Notes: a model not told the origin generated them from the letters alone. A DNA stretch of 64,000 bases from Armatimonadota bacterium (GCA_037443565.1 JBBIOB010000008.1:3166-67165), one strand, 5' to 3'. Counted from the first letter of the stretch, positions 25,925 through 53,227 are shown. A program made the numbers and translations.

Positions 25925-28345
25925 TCAGCCGACCGACCCCTCCATCTCGAGCGCGATCAGCCGGTTCAGCTCGACGGCGTACTCCAGCGGCAGCTCCTTG
26001 ACGATGGGCTCGATGAACCCGCGCACGATCATGTTCATGGCCTCGTCGCCCTTGACCCCGCGGCTCATCAGGTAGAAGAGCTGCTCGTCGCTGACCTTCG
26101 AGACGGTGGCCTCATGGGTGATCGACACATCCTGCTCTTCGATCTCCATGTACGGGTACGTATCCGACCGGCTGTGATCGTCGAGGATCAGCGCGTCGCA
26201 GCGCACCGCGCACTTGCTCCCCACGGCCCCAGGGTAGATCTTGACGAGCCCGCGGTAACCGGCGCGGCCGCCGTCTTTGCTGATGGACTTGCTCACGACG
26301 CTCGACTGGGTGTGCGGCGCGGCGTGCACGACCTTGCCGCCGGGATCCTGGTGCTGGCCCTTGCCGGCGAACGCCACCGACAGGATCTCGGCCTTGGCGC
26401 CCGGCTCGACCATGTAGACGCTCGGGTACTTCATGGTGATCTTGCTGTTGTGGACCACGAATCCGTTCGCCACGAAGTTGTGGCTGTTGGCGATCTCCAA
26501 GTCCCAGGTGTCTTCCACACCTTCAGGCTCGACGGTGGCGACCTTCGTGAAATGTACTGGATGATCGTGTGCGCCTTCCCCGAAGTACAGGAAGTAGTGC
26601 GTGTACTGCTTCGCCTCGCGGGAAAGGGGCTTTCGCTCCAGCCGAGACCACCGGCTGATCTTCCTGGGATCCAACCCGCAGGAGATCGCCAGGGCCTTCA
26701 CGTCCTCAAGAAGGTCCCGGTTGACGCTCGTGATCGACAGGTTGGTATGGTTGGCGCGGCGATGCCCGTCGGCCGCGATGTACCCCTCGATGAACGCCAG
26801 GCGCTGCGACTTCGGGAGCCGGTACACCCACCGGGGAACCCGCTTCTGCCTGGCGTTGCCCGCAAGCCCCAGCGACGTGATGAAGTCGCGGAGATGGACA
26901 GAGTTGATGCGGACGACGCCGCCCCGCAATTCGACGTCTACGCCGAACAGCGCCTCCAGGAGCTCGACCAGTCGGGTGTGCATCCGGTCCGGCGGGGGGA
27001 CCGCGAAGTAGACCCGGTTGCGGTCCACATAGCCGTCGCCGAGATAGACGCCGAGCACCCACATCAGATCGTCGGTGCTGACATCAGGAAGCAGGATCCG
27101 CTTTGTCCCGCGGATGGGAATCGGCTCGAAGACCCTGGCCACGCCGCTGTCCGGCACATCGCCGGCGATCGCGACGTAGTCAGTAGATGTCAACTGATCC
27201 AGCCGCTTCCATCCCAGGGAGAGCCGCCGGCCGCGCTTGGACAGCGTCAGGAACGGGTGGCTTGCAGTGGCGCGGATCTCACGGTGGTTGGCGGCCCGCA
27301 GACGGTACACCGGCTGCCTGCCGCTGTACTTCTTGGCCACGACCTTGTGCCTGGTCAGCTTCAGCTCGCCATCCACGGAGTAAACGGTATCGCCCGGCTC
27401 GACGACACTGATGGGCTTGACGTCGTTGTTGAGCAGAACCTGGCTGTCGCCCGTCAGGCACCCCAGGTTTCCGTCGACCCACTCCATCGTGGCGTCGCGA
27501 TACGCGACCGCGCGCTTCGTCACCAGGTTGTACGTATTGGTGGACCAGTTCTGGATCGTGGTGTAGCGGCATCGGGCGCCTTCCTTCACGATGATCTCGA
27601 CCACCGCCGAGTGCAGCGAGTCGGTGGTGTAGATCGGCGCCGTGCACCCCTCGACGTAGTGCACGTAGGAGCCCGGCTCGCAGATGATGAGCGTGCGCTC
27701 GAACTGGCCGGCCTTCTCGGCGTTGATCCGGAAGTAGGCCTGGAGCGGGATGTCGACCTTCACGCCCTCGGGCACGTAGACGAACGACCCGCCCGACCAC
27801 ACGGCCGTGTTCAGGGCGGCCAGCTTGTTATCCTCGGGCGGCACCACCGTCCCGAAGTACTGCTGGAAGATCTCCGGGTGCTTCTTGAGGGCGGTGTCGG
27901 TGTCGAGGAAGACGACCCCGAGCTTCTCCCACTCTTCCTTCAGGTTGTGGTAGACCGACTCGCTCTCATACTGCGCCCCCACGCCGGCCAGGTACTTCTT
28001 CTCGGCTTCGGGGATGCCCAGCCGGTCGAACGTTCGCTTGATGTCCTCCGGCACATCCTCCCACGTGCGGCCCTTCCCCTCGGTCGGCTTCAGGTAGTAG
28101 TAGATGTCGTTGAAGTCGATCTGCGAGAGGTCGGCGCCCCAGGTGGGCAGGGCCCGCGCCCGGAAGTGCTCGAGGGAGTGCAGCCGGATCGCGCGCATCC
28201 AGTCCGGCTCGCTCTTCATGTGCGAGATCTCCTCGACGACCTCGCGGTCGAGCCCTTTGCGCGCCTTGAACACGTAGTTCTCGGGGTCGCGAAATCCCCA
28301 CTTGTAAGTGTCGAGATCGATGCCCAGCGGATTTGTCGTCGCCAT
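25925..28345 (-). CDS. sufB: Fe-S cluster assembly protein SufB, interrupted by an in-frame intein (806-aa precursor, about 468-aa extein)
   Basis: The N-extein ends ...YRDATMEWVDGNLG and the C-extein resumes SKITMKYPSVYM... The tail ...DEQLFYLMSRGV...IVRGFIEPIVKELPLEYAVELNRLI is typical of SufB. Confidence 0.95.
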   Translation of the reverse strand: MATTNPLGIDLDTYKWGFRDPENYVFKARKGLDREVVEEISHMKSEPDWMRAIRLHSLEHFRARALPTWGADLSQIDFNDIYYYLKPTEGKGRTWEDVPEDIKRTFDRLGIPEAEKKYLAGVGAQYESESVYHNLKEEWEKLGVVFLDTDTALKKHPEIFQQYFGTVVPPEDNKLAALNTAVWSGGSFVYVPEGVKVDIPLQAYFRINAEKAGQFERTLIICEPGSYVHYVEGCTAPIYTTDSLHSAVVEIIVKEGARCRYTTIQNWSTNTYNLVTKRAVAYRDATMEWVDGNLGCLTGDSQVLLNNDVKPISVVEPGDTVYSVDGELKLTRHKVVAKKYSGRQPVYRLRAANHREIRATASHPFLTLSKRGRRLSLGWKRLDQLTSTDYVAIAGDVPDSGVARVFEPIPIRGTKRILLPDVSTDDLMWVLGVYLGDGYVDRNRVYFAVPPPDRMHTRLVELLEALFGVDVELRGGVVRINSVHLRDFITSLGLAGNARQKRVPRWVYRLPKSQRLAFIEGYIAADGHRRANHTNLSITSVNRDLLEDVKALAISCGLDPRKISRWSRLERKPLSREAKQYTHYFLYFGEGAHDHPVHFTKVATVEPEGVEDTWDLEIANSHNFVANGFVVHNSKITMKYPSVYMVEPGAKAEILSVAFAGKGQHQDPGGKVVHAAPHTQSSVVSKSISKDGGRAGYRGLVKIYPGAVGSKCAVRCDALILDDHSRSDTYPYMEIEEQDVSITHEATVSKVSDEQLFYLMSRGVKGDEAMNMIVRGFIEPIVKELPLEYAVELNRLIALEMEGSVG
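26447..27460 (-). mobile_element. Full-size class-1 intein with a LAGLIDADG homing-endonuclease domain (338 aa) inside sufB
   Basis: Begins CLTGDSQVLL (Cys1, TGC at 27460-27458). Block B is ATASHPFL (TxxH). LAGLIDADG motifs are LMWVLGVYLGDGYV and LAFIEGYIAADGH. It ends NFVANGFVVHN (AAC at 26449-26447), followed by Ser at +1. Confidence 0.9.
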
Positions 28346-50059: not shown

Positions 50060-51292
50060 ATGGGTCGTCATCCATCACGCAGGCACACGTCGCCGGAAGA
50101 GGCGCCCGCCGGCAGGCGTATCCGGCAGCGCCGGCGGGATCTGGGGCTGACGCAGGCGGACTTGGCCGGGTCGGACTACACCAAGAGCTTCATCAGCCAG
50201 ATCGAAGGCGGGCATGCGGATCCGTCGCTCGATACCCTGCGCCTCTTCGGCCGCAGGCTTCACCTGAGTCTCTCGACGATCGCCGGCGACGACGCCGACC
50301 GGCGCCTCGCCCTCCTGGCCGGGCTTCTGGCGTGGGCTGAGTCCCGCGCCGAAGCCGGCCGCTTGGATGCCGCCCGCCAGGCGGCGGCGCTGGTCCGTGA
50401 GATCGCGTCAGAGTCCGCGGCACCGCTGTTCGAAGCCGACGCCCTGCTGATGCTCGCGCACCTGGACACTGCGGCGGGGGACGTCGACGCCGCGCAGCGT
50501 GCGCTTGACGCGGTGGCCGCTCTTCCATTGAGGTCGGGGTCGCGGGTGAGCGTGCGGGCTGCGCTCGCACGGGGGGAACTGGCTCTGCGAAGGCGTGATG
50601 TGACGTCCTCCATCGAGGCATTCCGCCACGTCGCACGCTCGGGCCCTCATACTGCTCGCCATCCCGATCTGCGGGCACAGGCACTCATCGGGCTGGCCGC
50701 CACCGCGGACCGGTCCGGGGATCGACGGCGGGCCCGACGGAGGCTCGAATCGGCCCTCGCGCTGACCGCGCGCCAGGGTCTCCACAGCCTGCGCGGCGAC
50801 GTTCACCTTCGGCTCGCGGCATTGGATGGTCTCGAGGGTCGACACGATTCTGCCCTCCGGCACCTCGAGGAGGCCGCGCAGATGCTCCCCGCCCACCCCC
50901 GGACGAGATTGGCGACTCTGCTTGCCCTGGCGCAGGCAGCTCTGGCGTCGGGGGACCTACCCCTTGCTGAGCGGGCGGCGCAGCACGCCGGTCGGCTGAC
51001 CGAGACCATTGACGATGCGGTCGCCCGGGCAAGGACCGGGGCGCTGATCGGACGGGTGCTGGCCGCGCAGGGCCGCCACGCGGATGGGGCGGCGCGGCTC
51101 TCCGAGGCCGCCTCGCTGATCCGCGGAGAGGCCGCCCCCGTCGAGGTCGTGCAGGCCGCAAGAGAGTTCGGGGAGTTCTACCAGGCGGTGGGCGATCGCG
51201 ATGCGGCGGCGCGCTTCCTTGCGATAGCCTCCCGGCCCACACTGCCGACGACGGCAGACGGCAGTACGCCTGGAGCCGCCGCTCCCTGGTGA
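50060..51292 (+). CDS. XRE-family helix-turn-helix plus TPR-repeat protein (410 aa)
   Basis: RRIRQRRRDLGLTQADLAGSDYTKSFISQIEGGHADPSLDTLRLFGRRLHLSLSTI (HTH_XRE), followed by about 350 aa of Ala/Leu-rich TPR-like helical repeats. The start is set to the ATG at 50060 because the predicted promoter overlaps the track start (TTG at 49994). Confidence 0.8.
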   Translation: MGRHPSRRHTSPEEAPAGRRIRQRRRDLGLTQADLAGSDYTKSFISQIEGGHADPSLDTLRLFGRRLHLSLSTIAGDDADRRLALLAGLLAWAESRAEAGRLDAARQAAALVREIASESAAPLFEADALLMLAHLDTAAGDVDAAQRALDAVAALPLRSGSRVSVRAALARGELALRRRDVTSSIEAFRHVARSGPHTARHPDLRAQALIGLAATADRSGDRRRARRRLESALALTARQGLHSLRGDVHLRLAALDGLEGRHDSALRHLEEAAQMLPAHPRTRLATLLALAQAALASGDLPLAERAAQHAGRLTETIDDAVARARTGALIGRVLAAQGRHADGAARLSEAASLIRGEAAPVEVVQAAREFGEFYQAVGDRDAAARFLAIASRPTLPTTADGSTPGAAAPW

Positions 51293-51316: not shown

Positions 51317-52618
51317 CTATGTGACTCCGGCCTCCTGGACGCGGAACGCCCTGGCGAAGAGATGGGCCGCCTGCCCTTCCTCGCCGCGCTCCAAGAGCAG
51401 GAACCCGTAGTCGCGGCTGACCCGCGCCACCTCACCGACAGCCCCGAGGCGTTCGAACTCGTGAAGGGCGTACGCATAGCGATGCACGGCTTCGTCCAGC
51501 TTGCCTTCACGGTGACAGACGGCTGCCATGACGGTCTCGGCGCGCGCCGCCTCCGCCGGATCCTGCAGCCTGACCGCGAGTCGAATTGCTTCCTCGGCCC
51601 GGGAGCGTGCCGCCTCGGAGTCGCCGCGCAAGAATGCGGCGCGCGCCAGTTCGGTCAGGGTCTGCGCTCGGCCGGCGTCGTCCGCGAGCCGGCTGGCCAG
51701 GACGAGGCTCTGCTCGAGCGCAGCCACGCCCTCCTCGGGCTGACCGCGGTTGAGCAGCAGTATGCCGATGCTGCGCTTGACCGTGCCCAGGGCCAGCAGG
51801 TTCTCCTGGGTCTCGAAGAGCACCGCGGCCTTCTCGAGATGCACCCGTGCGAGATCAAATGACTGCTCCCGCTCGTAGGCGACGCCGAGGTTGAAATGCA
51901 ACGCCCCGAGCGACATGAGATCTCCAAGCGGCTCAAGCCGGTCGAGCGCAGCGCGAAAGCACTCGAGGGCCTGGGCCGGCAACCCAAGGTCAGAGTACGT
52001 CCGGCCGAGATTGGCCAGCACGCTGCCCTCGAATTCGGTGTCCGGCGGAGAGGCGGACCGCGCCGCCAACAGCGCCCGCGTGAAGGCGTCTCGGGCGGCC
52101 GGGAAGTCGCGCTTCCGGAGGGAGAGGAACCCTGTGGCGCTTGCCACCCGTGCGACTAAGTCCGGCCGCCCGAGCGCACCTGCGATCTCGCGCGCGCGGT
52201 CAAGATGCTGCTCAGCCAGGTCGAACTGCCTCAGCCCGGTCAGCGCCTGCCCCAGTCCGACCTGAATGCGAAACATGATCTCAGGCGGCGTGTCAGATCC
52301 ACCATGCCGCTCCGCCGCATGATAGGCTTCCACCGCCTCGGTGTGGCGGTGCTGCCGCAAGAGCGCCGCGCCCAGGTTGATCTTCAGGGACATCTGCCGG
52401 GCCAGCGGGGGCTCAGCATCGAGGAGGTGAGAGACCGGAACGCCGAGCCGCCCGGCGAGCAGCCGCAGGCTGTCCAGCGAAGGCCGCACCTTGTCGTGCT
52501 CGAGCATGCTGATGAAGCTCTCCGAGAGCTCCTCGCCGGCGAGCGCGCGCTGCGTCAGGCCGCGGTCTCGGCGAGCGCGGCGCACTTTCTCTCCAAGCGT
52601 CACAACGGTTCCCCCCAA
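51317..52618 (-). CDS. XRE-family helix-turn-helix plus TPR-repeat protein (about 433 aa), paralogue of the convergent neighbour
   Basis: EKVRRARRDRGLTQRALAGEELSESFISMLEHDKVRPSLDSLRLLAGRLGVPVSHLL (HTH_XRE), then multiple TPR-like units (...EAVEAYHAA..., ...ALECFRAALD..., ...RVHLEKAAVLFE...). TTG start at 52618 with GGAG 5 nt upstream. An alternative GTG lies at 52603. Confidence 0.8.
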   Translation of the reverse strand: MGGTVVTLGEKVRRARRDRGLTQRALAGEELSESFISMLEHDKVRPSLDSLRLLAGRLGVPVSHLLDAEPPLARQMSLKINLGAALLRQHRHTEAVEAYHAAERHGGSDTPPEIMFRIQVGLGQALTGLRQFDLAEQHLDRAREIAGALGRPDLVARVASATGFLSLRKRDFPAARDAFTRALLAARSASPPDTEFEGSVLANLGRTYSDLGLPAQALECFRAALDRLEPLGDLMSLGALHFNLGVAYEREQSFDLARVHLEKAAVLFETQENLLALGTVKRSIGILLLNRGQPEEGVAALEQSLVLASRLADDAGRAQTLTELARAAFLRGDSEAARSRAEEAIRLAVRLQDPAEAARAETVMAAVCHREGKLDEAVHRYAYALHEFERLGAVGEVARVSRDYGFLLLERGEEGQAAHLFARAFRVQEAGVT

Positions 52619-52711
52619 GAGATCTCCGGCCCGCGGCCAGGACTGTCAGCCCTGCAGCGGCTTCGTGATCTCGTGACCTGCGGCCAGGCGAAAGGCGCCT
52701 TGATGTGTGCG

Positions 52712-52870
52712 CTACGCCCAGCCGCCCAGCGCTTCGATGTCGCCGTGCCCGGCCCAGCCGCCCAGCGCCTCGATGTCGCCATGTCCGCCCATGAGAGTCG
52801 CCGTGCTACGCAGGTTTGCGCATGAAACGCCGAGCAACACGGCAAGGGCGATCACGACCATGGTTCTCAT
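52712..52870 (-). CDS. Small secreted/lipobox pre-peptide (52 aa) ending in a tandem 12-aa repeat; below the ORF-track length cutoff
   Basis: My translation: MRTMVVIALAVLLGVSCANLRSTATLMGGHGDIEALGGWAGHGDIEALGGWA*. GGGGGGAG lies 7 nt upstream of the ATG at 52870. The N-terminal signal peptide has an LLGVSC lipobox-like site. The two 36-nt repeat copies differ at 4 positions, all third-codon and synonymous in this frame only. Confidence 0.7.
   Translation of the reverse strand: MRTMVVIALAVLLGVSCANLRSTATLMGGHGDIEALGGWAGHGDIEALGGWA
52715..52786 (-). repeat. 36-nt x 2 tandem repeat encoding GHGDIEALGGWA twice
   Basis: Copy 1 (52786-52751): ggacatggcgacatcgaggcgctgggcggctgggcc. Copy 2 (52750-52715): gggcacggcgacatcgaagcgctgggcggctgggcg. 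Confidence 0.95.
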
Positions 52871-53146
52871 CTGATTCTCCCCCCTCAGGGTTCGGGCTGC
52901 GGATCGTCCAAAGGCAGGCTTCGATCTGGGAATGCCCGACGTTTCGACACCTGCCGGTGAAGTTCCTCCATTGGAAGGCTCTCACTTCATCAATACTGAA
53001 GTCCGATGCCCGGTGGCCGCTGAACTATCGTTTGGGAGGCCGATTTCTTGCAGTTCCCGGCAGGAACCGAAGAGCAATGGCAAAAATCACTCTGTCTGAA
53101 CTGGCGGGTTCTCCACGCGTTCACCGCCACGCGCGGAAGGGTCGGT

Positions 53147-53227
53147 CCTGACACCAGGTCAGGTCGGGGGCGGCACCTCCGGACCGACGAGGCCGGAGGG
53201 CGTCGTTCCGGTAGCCGCCCCCCGACC
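53147..53227 (-). terminator. Compound GC-rich stem-loop structure downstream of the dioxygenase gene; possible terminator or insulator
   Basis: Outer stem GGTCGGGGGCGGC (53162-53174) pairs with GCCGCCCCCCGACC (53214-53227) with one bulge. Inner hairpin CCTCCGG-N10-CCGGAGG (53176-53199). Adjacent hairpin CCTGAC-N5-GTCAGG (53147-53163). There is no U-tract. Confidence 0.4.

Follow-up and report, generated by a model that had tools for sequence, protein, structure and literature searches.

In a 64,000-nucleotide stretch of DNA from an Armatimonadota bacterium (GCA_037443565.1, JBBIOB010000008.1:3166-67165; this whole stretch is called the window below, and positions are counted from its first letter), a 52-codon open reading frame (ORF) lies directly upstream of a regulator gene on the same strand. 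The regulator joins a helix-turn-helix (HTH) domain to tetratricopeptide repeats (TPRs). As judged from sequence, the product of the small ORF begins with a Sec-type signal peptide and ends in a conserved unit that is present twice, and it is probably an exported multi-copy pro-peptide that acts as the ligand of the adjacent HTH-TPR regulator, forming an RRNPP-like system outside Bacillota. We regard as evenly balanced the broader statement that RRNPP-type peptide signaling through cytoplasmic receptors is not confined to Bacillota, and that ~430-aa HTH-TPR receptors with Sec-exported poly-pheromone precursors occur across Sysuimicrobiota. The predicted parts of the precursor are as follows.

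52817..52870, minus strand: signal peptide, approximately codons 1-18, with the likely signal peptidase I site between SCA and N, after residue 18.
52787..52816, minus strand: pro-region, codons 19-28 of the ORF translation.
52751..52786, minus strand: repeat unit 1, GHGDIEALGGWA, with the core GHGDIEAL(G) as the proposed mature part and GGWA as the linker.
52715..52750, minus strand: repeat unit 2, GHGDIEALGGWA, with four synonymous third-position changes relative to unit 1.

The first-pass annotation of this DNA had described a minus-strand ORF of 52 codons ending in two identical 12-residue units. Translation from the ATG at 52870 reproduces it: the 52 codons and the stop at 52712..52870 yield MRTMVVIALAVLLGVSCANLRSTATLMGGHGDIEALGGWAGHGDIEALGGWA, which reads MRTMVVIALAVLLGVSCANLRSTATLMG-GHGDIEALGGWA-GHGDIEALGGWA, that is, a putative signal peptide, a short pro-region, and two repeat units. 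Tandem Repeats Finder applied to the window reports the same repeat, with a period of 36 nt, 2.2 copies, and a score of 124. The ribosome-binding site claimed upstream of the ATG is present as a Shine-Dalgarno-like GGGGGGAG (52877..52884, minus strand), with a spacer of 6 nt and not of 7 nt. Exactly four mismatches separate the two 36-nt units (gga/ggg, cat/cac, gag/gaa, gcc/gcg), each of them third-codon and synonymous, as had been stated; the same four differences were said to alter amino acids in both longer ORFs that overlap the region (52600..52845 on the minus strand and 52205..52825 on the plus strand), and translation of these ORFs confirms it. The chance that four of four differences fall at third positions of a pre-specified frame is (1/3)^4, about 0.012.

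The G+C content of the small ORF by codon position (0.66/0.53/0.81) fits real genes of the window, whose overall G+C content is ~70%. In the output of two independent public gene callers the ORF is listed as a gene with no function assigned, its homologue carries the JGI label 'hypothetical protein', and an Rfam scan of the region gave no match. One could still suspect that the tandem repeat is non-coding and the frame open by chance, as high-G+C DNA is rich in spurious ORFs and several overlap this region. This explanation is refuted by the comparison of related genomes described below, namely by conservation at more than 50 loci, in-frame copy changes, an overwhelming synonymous bias, and Shine-Dalgarno sites, and its probability is negligible. 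The small ORF is almost certainly a real gene.

A homology search with the 52-aa peptide returned only the peptide itself and one relative, hence the peptide family was found via the receptor. The loci examined come from 33 species genomes, 21 metagenome contigs, and the closest relative (L040), with receptor identities from 43 to 100%. The receptors form clade A, which contains that of the window (68-100% identical), clade B (~50%), and clade C (43-48%). All receptor relatives in the species-level genome collection are metagenome-assembled genomes, labeled Armatimonadota, 'bacterium', or Candidatus Fervidifonticultor/Geohabitans. NCBI taxonomy places Fervidifonticultor and Geohabitans within Candidatus Sysuimicrobiota, a phylum of Bacillati without cultivated members that was formerly called CSP1-3 (PMC11604079). 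The host of the window belongs to Ca. Sysuimicrobiota (CSP1-3).

The first-pass annotation had proposed a search for small ORFs beside HTH-TPR genes in related genomes, and its case depended on conservation in relatives that keep the flanking regulator. Both expectations held. At every receptor-relative locus whose upstream DNA is on the contig, a homologous small ORF is found directly upstream on the same strand. A Shine-Dalgarno-like site of the AGGAGG/GGGAGG type precedes the start codon by 5-9 nt in 33 of the 34 loci with an assignable start. The products are 36-92 aa long in the relatives (52 aa in the window). For signal peptides we relied on our own feature counts (K/R n-region, uncharged core, A-x-A), by which all 52 distinct products have 1-3 Lys/Arg in the n-region and then a hydrophobic core with no charge over at least 14 residues.

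The C-terminal parts are built on a common plan: 51 of the 52 products contain 1-5 tandem copies of the core A-G-x-G-(D/G)-x-x-x-(L/F/I/V), the exception being one 43%-identity homologue with the divergent tail AEGDDDGLP. Multi-copy precursors are exemplified by GHGDGPVLDREMA (4-5 copies), GHGDGELL(N/S)GG(G)WA (2-5 copies), and ARHGDGE(I/V)LGGxx (3-4 copies), and by the nine-residue units AGDGNIEVI (2 copies) and AGAGDLDIV (5 copies), while single-copy precursors carry AGRGDMDSFG, AGSGDFDSFG, or AGHGGGELL. Copy number varies among close relatives, and every difference is in frame. A metagenome variant of the GHGDGELLNGGWA precursor (L063:1136-1486) has an in-frame deletion of the start of the first unit, which fuses the pro-region straight onto ..LLNGGWA.

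In some relatives the gap between the peptide and receptor genes shrinks to 6-14 nt. With a small gene upstream, co-oriented and so close, translational coupling is permitted, and the gene could encode a small membrane-anchored or periplasmic protein, or serve as an upstream ORF that tunes the downstream regulator, no extracellular signal being involved. However, neither a canonical signal peptide nor amino-acid-level conservation of a repeated C-terminal unit is needed for such a role. In the sister family described below the small gene is transcribed divergently from the receptor gene, so translational coupling is impossible there. Altogether, we consider this explanation improbable.

Selection on the repeat unit can be traced both between copies and between genomes. 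Within-locus pairs of 9-residue cores from 22 multi-copy loci show 236 synonymous versus 33 non-synonymous codon differences, and nucleotide differences at codon positions 1/2/3 number 50/10/233, all these counts being pairwise and hence non-independent. Since synonymous differences between copies far outnumber non-synonymous ones, the repeats are old and their amino-acid sequence has been held constant. Between the window and L040, whose receptors are 92% identical, the 18 codons of the two GHGDIEALG cores contain five synonymous and no non-synonymous changes; codons 15-28, which run from the last residues of the signal peptide through the pro-region, contain 10 non-synonymous ones, and the linker residues GWA of the window are replaced by ERA/GRA in L040. 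Only the repeat core is held constant, and the pro-region and linkers drift. The purifying selection on the small frame that had been proposed from the window is thereby borne out, and the suggested survey of copy number and substitutions across relatives gave 1-5 copies, all in frame, with a strong synonymous bias.

The synonymous codon pattern of the units looks swapped between the window (52715..52786) and L040 (8085..8156): unit 1 of the window (GGA CAT..GAG) equals unit 2 of L040, and unit 2 of the window (GGG CAC..GAA) is near unit 1 of L040. The swapped pattern suggests turnover of the repeat units by unequal exchange rather than simple vertical descent.

The extent of the active unit may be deduced from its borders. 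Ala stands directly before 99 of 107 cores. In 18 single- or double-copy members, mostly single-copy, the motif A-[FL]-A (or V-F-A) abuts the core, as in ..AAPAALA immediately followed by GHGGGELLRAETKR. Some precursors terminate exactly at ...GHGGGELL, and some units adjoin each other with no linker (AGDGNIEVI twice, AGAGDLDIV five times). From these four features we infer an active unit of ~8-9 residues, which in the window would be GHGDIEAL(G), with the linker GGWA. Because the A-x-A motif abuts the core, signal peptidase I itself would create the N-terminus of the peptide in many relatives. The comparative evidence thus supports the earlier suggestion of an exported pro-peptide whose repeated C-terminal unit is the active part, with export and processing as its predicted steps.

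The fallback offered by the first-pass annotation was a small repeat lipoprotein with LLGVSC as its lipobox, in which Cys17 would be the anchor. The window sequence does fit the permissive lipobox pattern (PROSITE PS51257). However, Cys17 is replaced by Gly in the closest relative, L040, and none of the other peptides among the 52 has a lipobox at the end of the signal peptide; a single unrelated Cys lies inside a hydrophobic core. The lipoprotein reading fails because LLGVSC has no conserved Cys; it is refuted as a family property and is extremely improbable for the window.

The proposed receptor is encoded immediately after the small ORF.

51317..52603, minus strand: HTH-TPR regulator, 428 aa from the GTG at 52603 (the longest ORF begins with the TTG at 52618).

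Its Pfam domains are HTH_3, of the XRE type, and TPR_12 (E 1e-30), and it has no membrane segment. Receptor lengths are 428-433 aa. In the AlphaFold2 model, built with 46 homologues (mean predicted local distance difference test score 93), a five-helix HTH is followed by 18 helices, which make nine TPR-like pairs. A Foldseek search of the PDB with this model ranked generic peptide-binding TPR proteins at the top (LGN/Pins, E about 1e-11; LGN 2e-11), followed by the PlcR-PapR-DNA complex (3u3w, E 3e-8), Rap of pLS20, RapJ with its peptide (4gyo, TM-score 0.63/0.75), and Rap of phi3T. In sequence searches the best match to the TPR part is AfsR (E 3e-8), and the matches to Rap TPRs are weak (phmmer E 0.13-0.47 with the window protein and 1.7e-7 with the family profile), below those to generic TPR proteins. 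Membership of the RRNPP family by sequence was rejected, as Pfam, NCBIfam, and PDB searches gave just HTH and generic TPR matches. We do not file the receptor in the RRNPP protein family: it has the architecture and, to judge from Foldseek matches that rank below generic TPR proteins, possibly the fold class of that family, and no demonstrable homology to it.

By general TPR knowledge, the A helices of TPRs are assigned to the concave face. A comparison of 25 clade A receptors showed less variation in these helices (entropy 0.62) than in the B helices (0.81; p 0.03). This would fit a conserved contact with the G-x-G-D part of the peptide, with no sign of pherotype-specific pockets.

The receptor also has a weak NCBIfam match, far below the cut-off, to HaaT, a TPR protein associated with ribosomally synthesized and post-translationally modified peptides (RiPPs; E 1e-10). 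RiPPs include multi-core precursors with conserved repeats, and the small gene could encode such a precursor, its multiple cores being modified by dedicated enzymes. In that case one would look for the enzymes nearby, but no gene for a modifying enzyme, protease, or exporter is conserved beside the pair. The neighbors vary by clade, and the conserved neighbors of the peptide gene are the receptor gene and, in clades B and C, a gene for a GerE-type regulator. The N-terminus, moreover, is a Sec-type signal and not a leader peptide. A RiPP precursor is very improbable on these grounds.

The next-nearest homologue of the receptor (P0122, 30% identity) stands for more than 360 protein clusters, which NCBI names assign to Candidatus Limnocylindria/Limnocylindrales (Chloroflexota). 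Some of these sister proteins carry the automatic JGI label 'quorum sensing regulator NprR', which the PDB search does not support. At four Limnocylindria-type loci (L118-L121), a small gene is transcribed divergently from the receptor gene, and its product has a signal ending in ..ASA; the three complete gene calls among the four loci contain a full signal peptide. The C-termini consist of two tandem units, whose sequences are unrelated to the GHGD core: LPEDPGIA/LPEDPGIN, IQPEDPGT/IQPEDPGF, VPEDPPPV twice, and LTPVDPGYPQ/VIPVDPGYPQ. The inverted repeat found upstream of the peptide gene in Sysuimicrobiota (see below) was sought in the intergenic regions of Limnocylindria and was not found in them; other conserved blocks are present there. 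Beside the peptide gene, L118-L121 also have a conserved gene for a 57-68-aa protein (..FLFQHGYRFGKVTY.TRLPL..GDNPWML.), followed by the gene for D-tyrosyl-tRNA deacylase.

The pairing of sister receptors with unrelated secreted repeats argues that the peptide is the ligand of the receptor and is not valued for the chemistry of GHGD. In our view, this recurrence is the strongest argument for the peptide as the putative ligand. If the receptor families of Sysuimicrobiota and Limnocylindria, 30% identical to each other, both take part in such signaling, the system would either be ancient in Terrabacteria or have been invented again.

The chemistry of the core deserves attention in its own right, because the peptide could be a secreted effector (metal-binding, matrix, or antimicrobial), the HTH-TPR protein controlling its gene and sensing something else. 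Gly, His, and Asp abound in the core, and cleavage would expose Gly-His or Ala-Gly-His at the N-terminus. N-termini of this kind are well known to bind Cu(II)/Ni(II), as in GHK and the amino-terminal Cu(II)- and Ni(II)-binding motif (ATCUN). Re-import of the peptide is a conjectural step, and a conserved operator indicates regulation of the gene and no more. However, the His is not conserved, being replaced in the variants AGRGD, AGSGD, AGPGD, AGDGN, AGVGD, and AGAGD. The sister receptors pair with chemically unrelated Pro/Glu/Asp-rich repeats, which points to a receptor-ligand relation. TPR grooves typically bind extended peptides, and the Foldseek matches include TPR proteins with a peptide in the groove. 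An effector role is therefore rather unlikely in our estimate, and we prefer the reading of the peptide as a signal sensed by the adjacent regulator.

Two conserved elements precede the peptide gene.

52985..53001, minus strand: inverted repeat CTTCAGTATTGATGAAG, 17 bp, candidate operator of the HTH regulator.
52943..52966, minus strand: box 2, GGAACTTCACCGGCAGGTGTCGAA, conserved and resembling a promoter or a second operator, 72 nt before the ATG.

The pattern CTTCA-N5-9-TGAAG has a single match in the 64-kb window, the CTTCAGTATTGATGAAG site, versus 0.06 expected, and box 2 begins 35 bp from the inverted repeat. Most members of clades A and B have, before the peptide gene, the composite of CTTCAs-N5-sTGAAG and GGAACTTCAG-N8-10-GTCGAA, the two parts being 35-36 bp apart; in a subset of clade C, a variant of this pair is spaced by 26 bp, shorter by one helical turn. 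Scanning one genome from each of 185,579 species with the composite gave 44 matches, among which the 10 from Sysuimicrobiota are all at peptide loci; the other ~32 look like chance matches, and the five that were checked all lack both GTCGAA and a peptide gene. The inverted repeat and box 2 resemble an autoregulatory operator and its promoter, and we treat them as candidates for these roles. A regulon search with the inverted repeat in the window and with the composite in the 185,579 species genomes found no target genes. Consensus scans found neither a sigma-70 promoter nor an intrinsic terminator, and the fold of the intergenic region between the peptide and receptor genes, considered as a terminator or attenuator, is no better than that of shuffled sequences (z 0.27).

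Some other features of the loci are clade-specific. In clades B and C (L012-L014, L019-L034; for example, L013:7299-7682), a gene for a 100-150-aa HTH protein of the GerE/LuxR type overlaps the stop codon of the receptor gene, giving a three-gene unit of peptide, HTH-TPR, and GerE. This unit is absent from the window's clade, where a convergent HTH-TPR paralogue is found instead. About 30-60 nt before the peptide start in clade B (for example, L013, L012, L020, L033, L034), there is a sequence near the sigma-28/FliA consensus, CTAAAAA-N12-15-G[TC]CGATAA, located just upstream of the ribosome-binding site and absent from the window; a pattern scan matched only two of these loci. This site may tie the signal to the motility regulon in the clade B lineages.

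The mechanism we propose would start with export of the precursor and its cleavage by signal peptidase I. Cuts after the Ala that precedes each unit would free two copies of the 8-9-residue peptide GHGDIEAL(G), tandem copies raising the number of signal molecules per translation. The peptide would build up outside the cells, re-enter through an oligopeptide permease, and bind the cytoplasmic regulator in the concave groove of its TPRs. Binding would alter the action of the regulator at the inverted repeat that precedes the peptide gene, resulting in autoregulation, and the regulator would possibly act at further targets. Export, processing, re-import, and receptor binding are thus all predicted steps. 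The elements of the RRNPP signature in PMC10075063 (a small pro-peptide, a Sec signal, a 250-500-aa receptor, TPRs, and adjacency) are all five found at the locus. Genomes of CSP1-3 are reported to encode oligopeptide and peptide/nickel transporters (PMC11962464).

Several observations weigh against this mechanism and against its RRNPP-like character. LGN/Pins rank above PlcR and Rap as structural matches. Neither Pfam and NCBIfam searches with the window protein nor the precomputed domains of 120 homologues contain an RRNPP-specific model; in PDB sequence searches with the receptor, the HTH alone matches PlcR/ComR, and there is no match to NprR. A diversifying peptide-binding groove is unsupported, the A helices being the more conserved, even though the peptides differ between species. 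No Opp-type transporter was found among the 20 candidate window genes scanned, and an outer membrane, if present in the phylum, would complicate both release and uptake. The closest relative (L040-L042) lacks the inverted repeat and box 2 owing to a deletion of ~190 nt (relative to 52885..53080 of the window). A weak point of another kind is that the output of the system may differ between clades, because clades B and C have the GerE-type gene and the window has none.

A second regulator gene of the same architecture lies beyond the first.

50060..51292, plus strand: second HTH-TPR gene, identified by Pfam domains and a gene call, convergent with the first.

Its product is ~30% identical to the first regulator, 24 nt separate the two stop codons, and it has no peptide gene of its own. 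The gene is kept downstream in the window's clade at 41-57% identity. It may encode an 'orphan' receptor and is an uncertain member of the signaling system.

Upstream of the peptide gene, on the same strand, are catabolic genes of the 4-hydroxyphenylacetate type (dioxygenase, flavin reductase, and HpaB). Just past the stop codon of the dioxygenase gene (53264), in minus-strand reading, a GC-rich hairpin of ~66 nt, GGTCGGGGGGCGGC...GCCGCCCCCGACC, occupies window positions 53162..53227. The closest relative matches it at 97% identity, in contrast to the diverging flanks, and approximately 10 other clade A loci match it at 84-94%; in every case it precedes the peptide gene. Each genome has a single copy, confined to this locus, and Rfam has no match to it. 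Three pairs of the outer stem are compensatory, and the sequence of the inner part does not vary. The hairpin could be a small RNA, a leader, or a protein-binding site. In L040-L042, hpaB is truncated and the dioxygenase gene is in fragments; the peptide-receptor pair and the hairpin are intact. Elsewhere in the window (25925..28345, minus strand), a SufB gene contains an intein with a LAGLIDADG homing-endonuclease domain (Pfam SUFBD_core, Intein_splicing, LAGLIDADG_3).

In the reviews and surveys consulted, quorum sensing by peptides that act on cytoplasmic TPR receptors figures as a speciality of Firmicutes. A computational census of RRNPP systems covers Firmicutes and viruses only (PMC10075063), and the structural and evolutionary studies consulted treat RRNPPA as a Bacillota family (PMC9765709, PMC12700828). 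Our literature search found no paper on RRNPP systems hosted by Armatimonadota, Chloroflexi, or Actinobacteria and none on quorum sensing in CSP1-3, about which the genomic papers on CSP1-3 are silent. If the proposed reading is true, the picture changes for two poorly known phyla, and a first handle is obtained on social regulation in Sysuimicrobiota and Limnocylindria. CSP1-3/Sysuimicrobiota are uncultivated, prevalent (as the title of one paper has it), and reportedly abundant in hot springs and deep soils. The reagents are supplied by the locus itself: short unmodified peptides that can be synthesized, a soluble receptor, and a 17-bp candidate operator. Synthetic cognate peptides might aid enrichment and cultivation. 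The multi-copy precursors, with old repeats diverged at synonymous sites, also offer a clean natural case for studying the dosage and turnover of signal units.

Among known systems, the closest parallels are NprR-NprX and PlcR-PapR of the Bacillus cereus group. In these systems, too, a cytoplasmic XRE-type HTH and TPR regulator is encoded beside a gene for a Sec-exported pro-peptide, the short mature part is the ligand (here a predicted one), and a palindromic operator serves autoregulation (here a candidate). NprR has ~420 aa and nine TPRs. The system described here differs from both in that the receptor has no match to an RRNPP-specific profile, the host is Sysuimicrobiota, and the peptide gene is upstream of the receptor gene. 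The peptide is Gly-rich, acidic, and present in 1-5 tandem copies, and signal peptidase itself would create its N-terminus in many relatives. The distribution also departs from that described for RRNPP, which is Bacillota and mobile elements, whereas the hosts here are Sysuimicrobiota, with the sister family in Limnocylindria.

The closest parallel for the repeated units is provided by Rap-Phr of the Bacillus phages phi3T and phi105, where tandemly duplicated pheromones occur in one pro-peptide (PMC11343458). As in that system, there are several putative mature copies per pro-peptide, the copy number varies, and Rap folds are among the structural matches of our receptor. However, Rap has no HTH and acts on protein partners, and the peptide gene is downstream of rap. 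Here, unlike in Rap-Phr, the copies are mostly identical in amino-acid sequence and strongly diverged at synonymous sites. The divergent order of receptor and peptide genes in Rgg-SHP and PrgX-PrgQ is shared with the Limnocylindria sister family. SHP and PrgQ peptides lack a Sec signal and leave the cell through PptAB (PMC10075063), whereas the peptides here carry classical signal peptides by our feature counts.

More distant likenesses concern single features. The TPR domains of AfsR/SARP and of LGN/Pins are the best sequence and structure matches to the TPR part of the receptor; these architectures and their biology differ, and the matches reflect generic TPR similarity. The alpha-factor precursor of yeast is likewise secreted with tandem pheromone copies and short spacers, and it is processed by Kex2/Ste13 and sensed by a surface G-protein-coupled receptor. 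It belongs to a eukaryotic system, and its likeness to the precursors described here is an analogy only.

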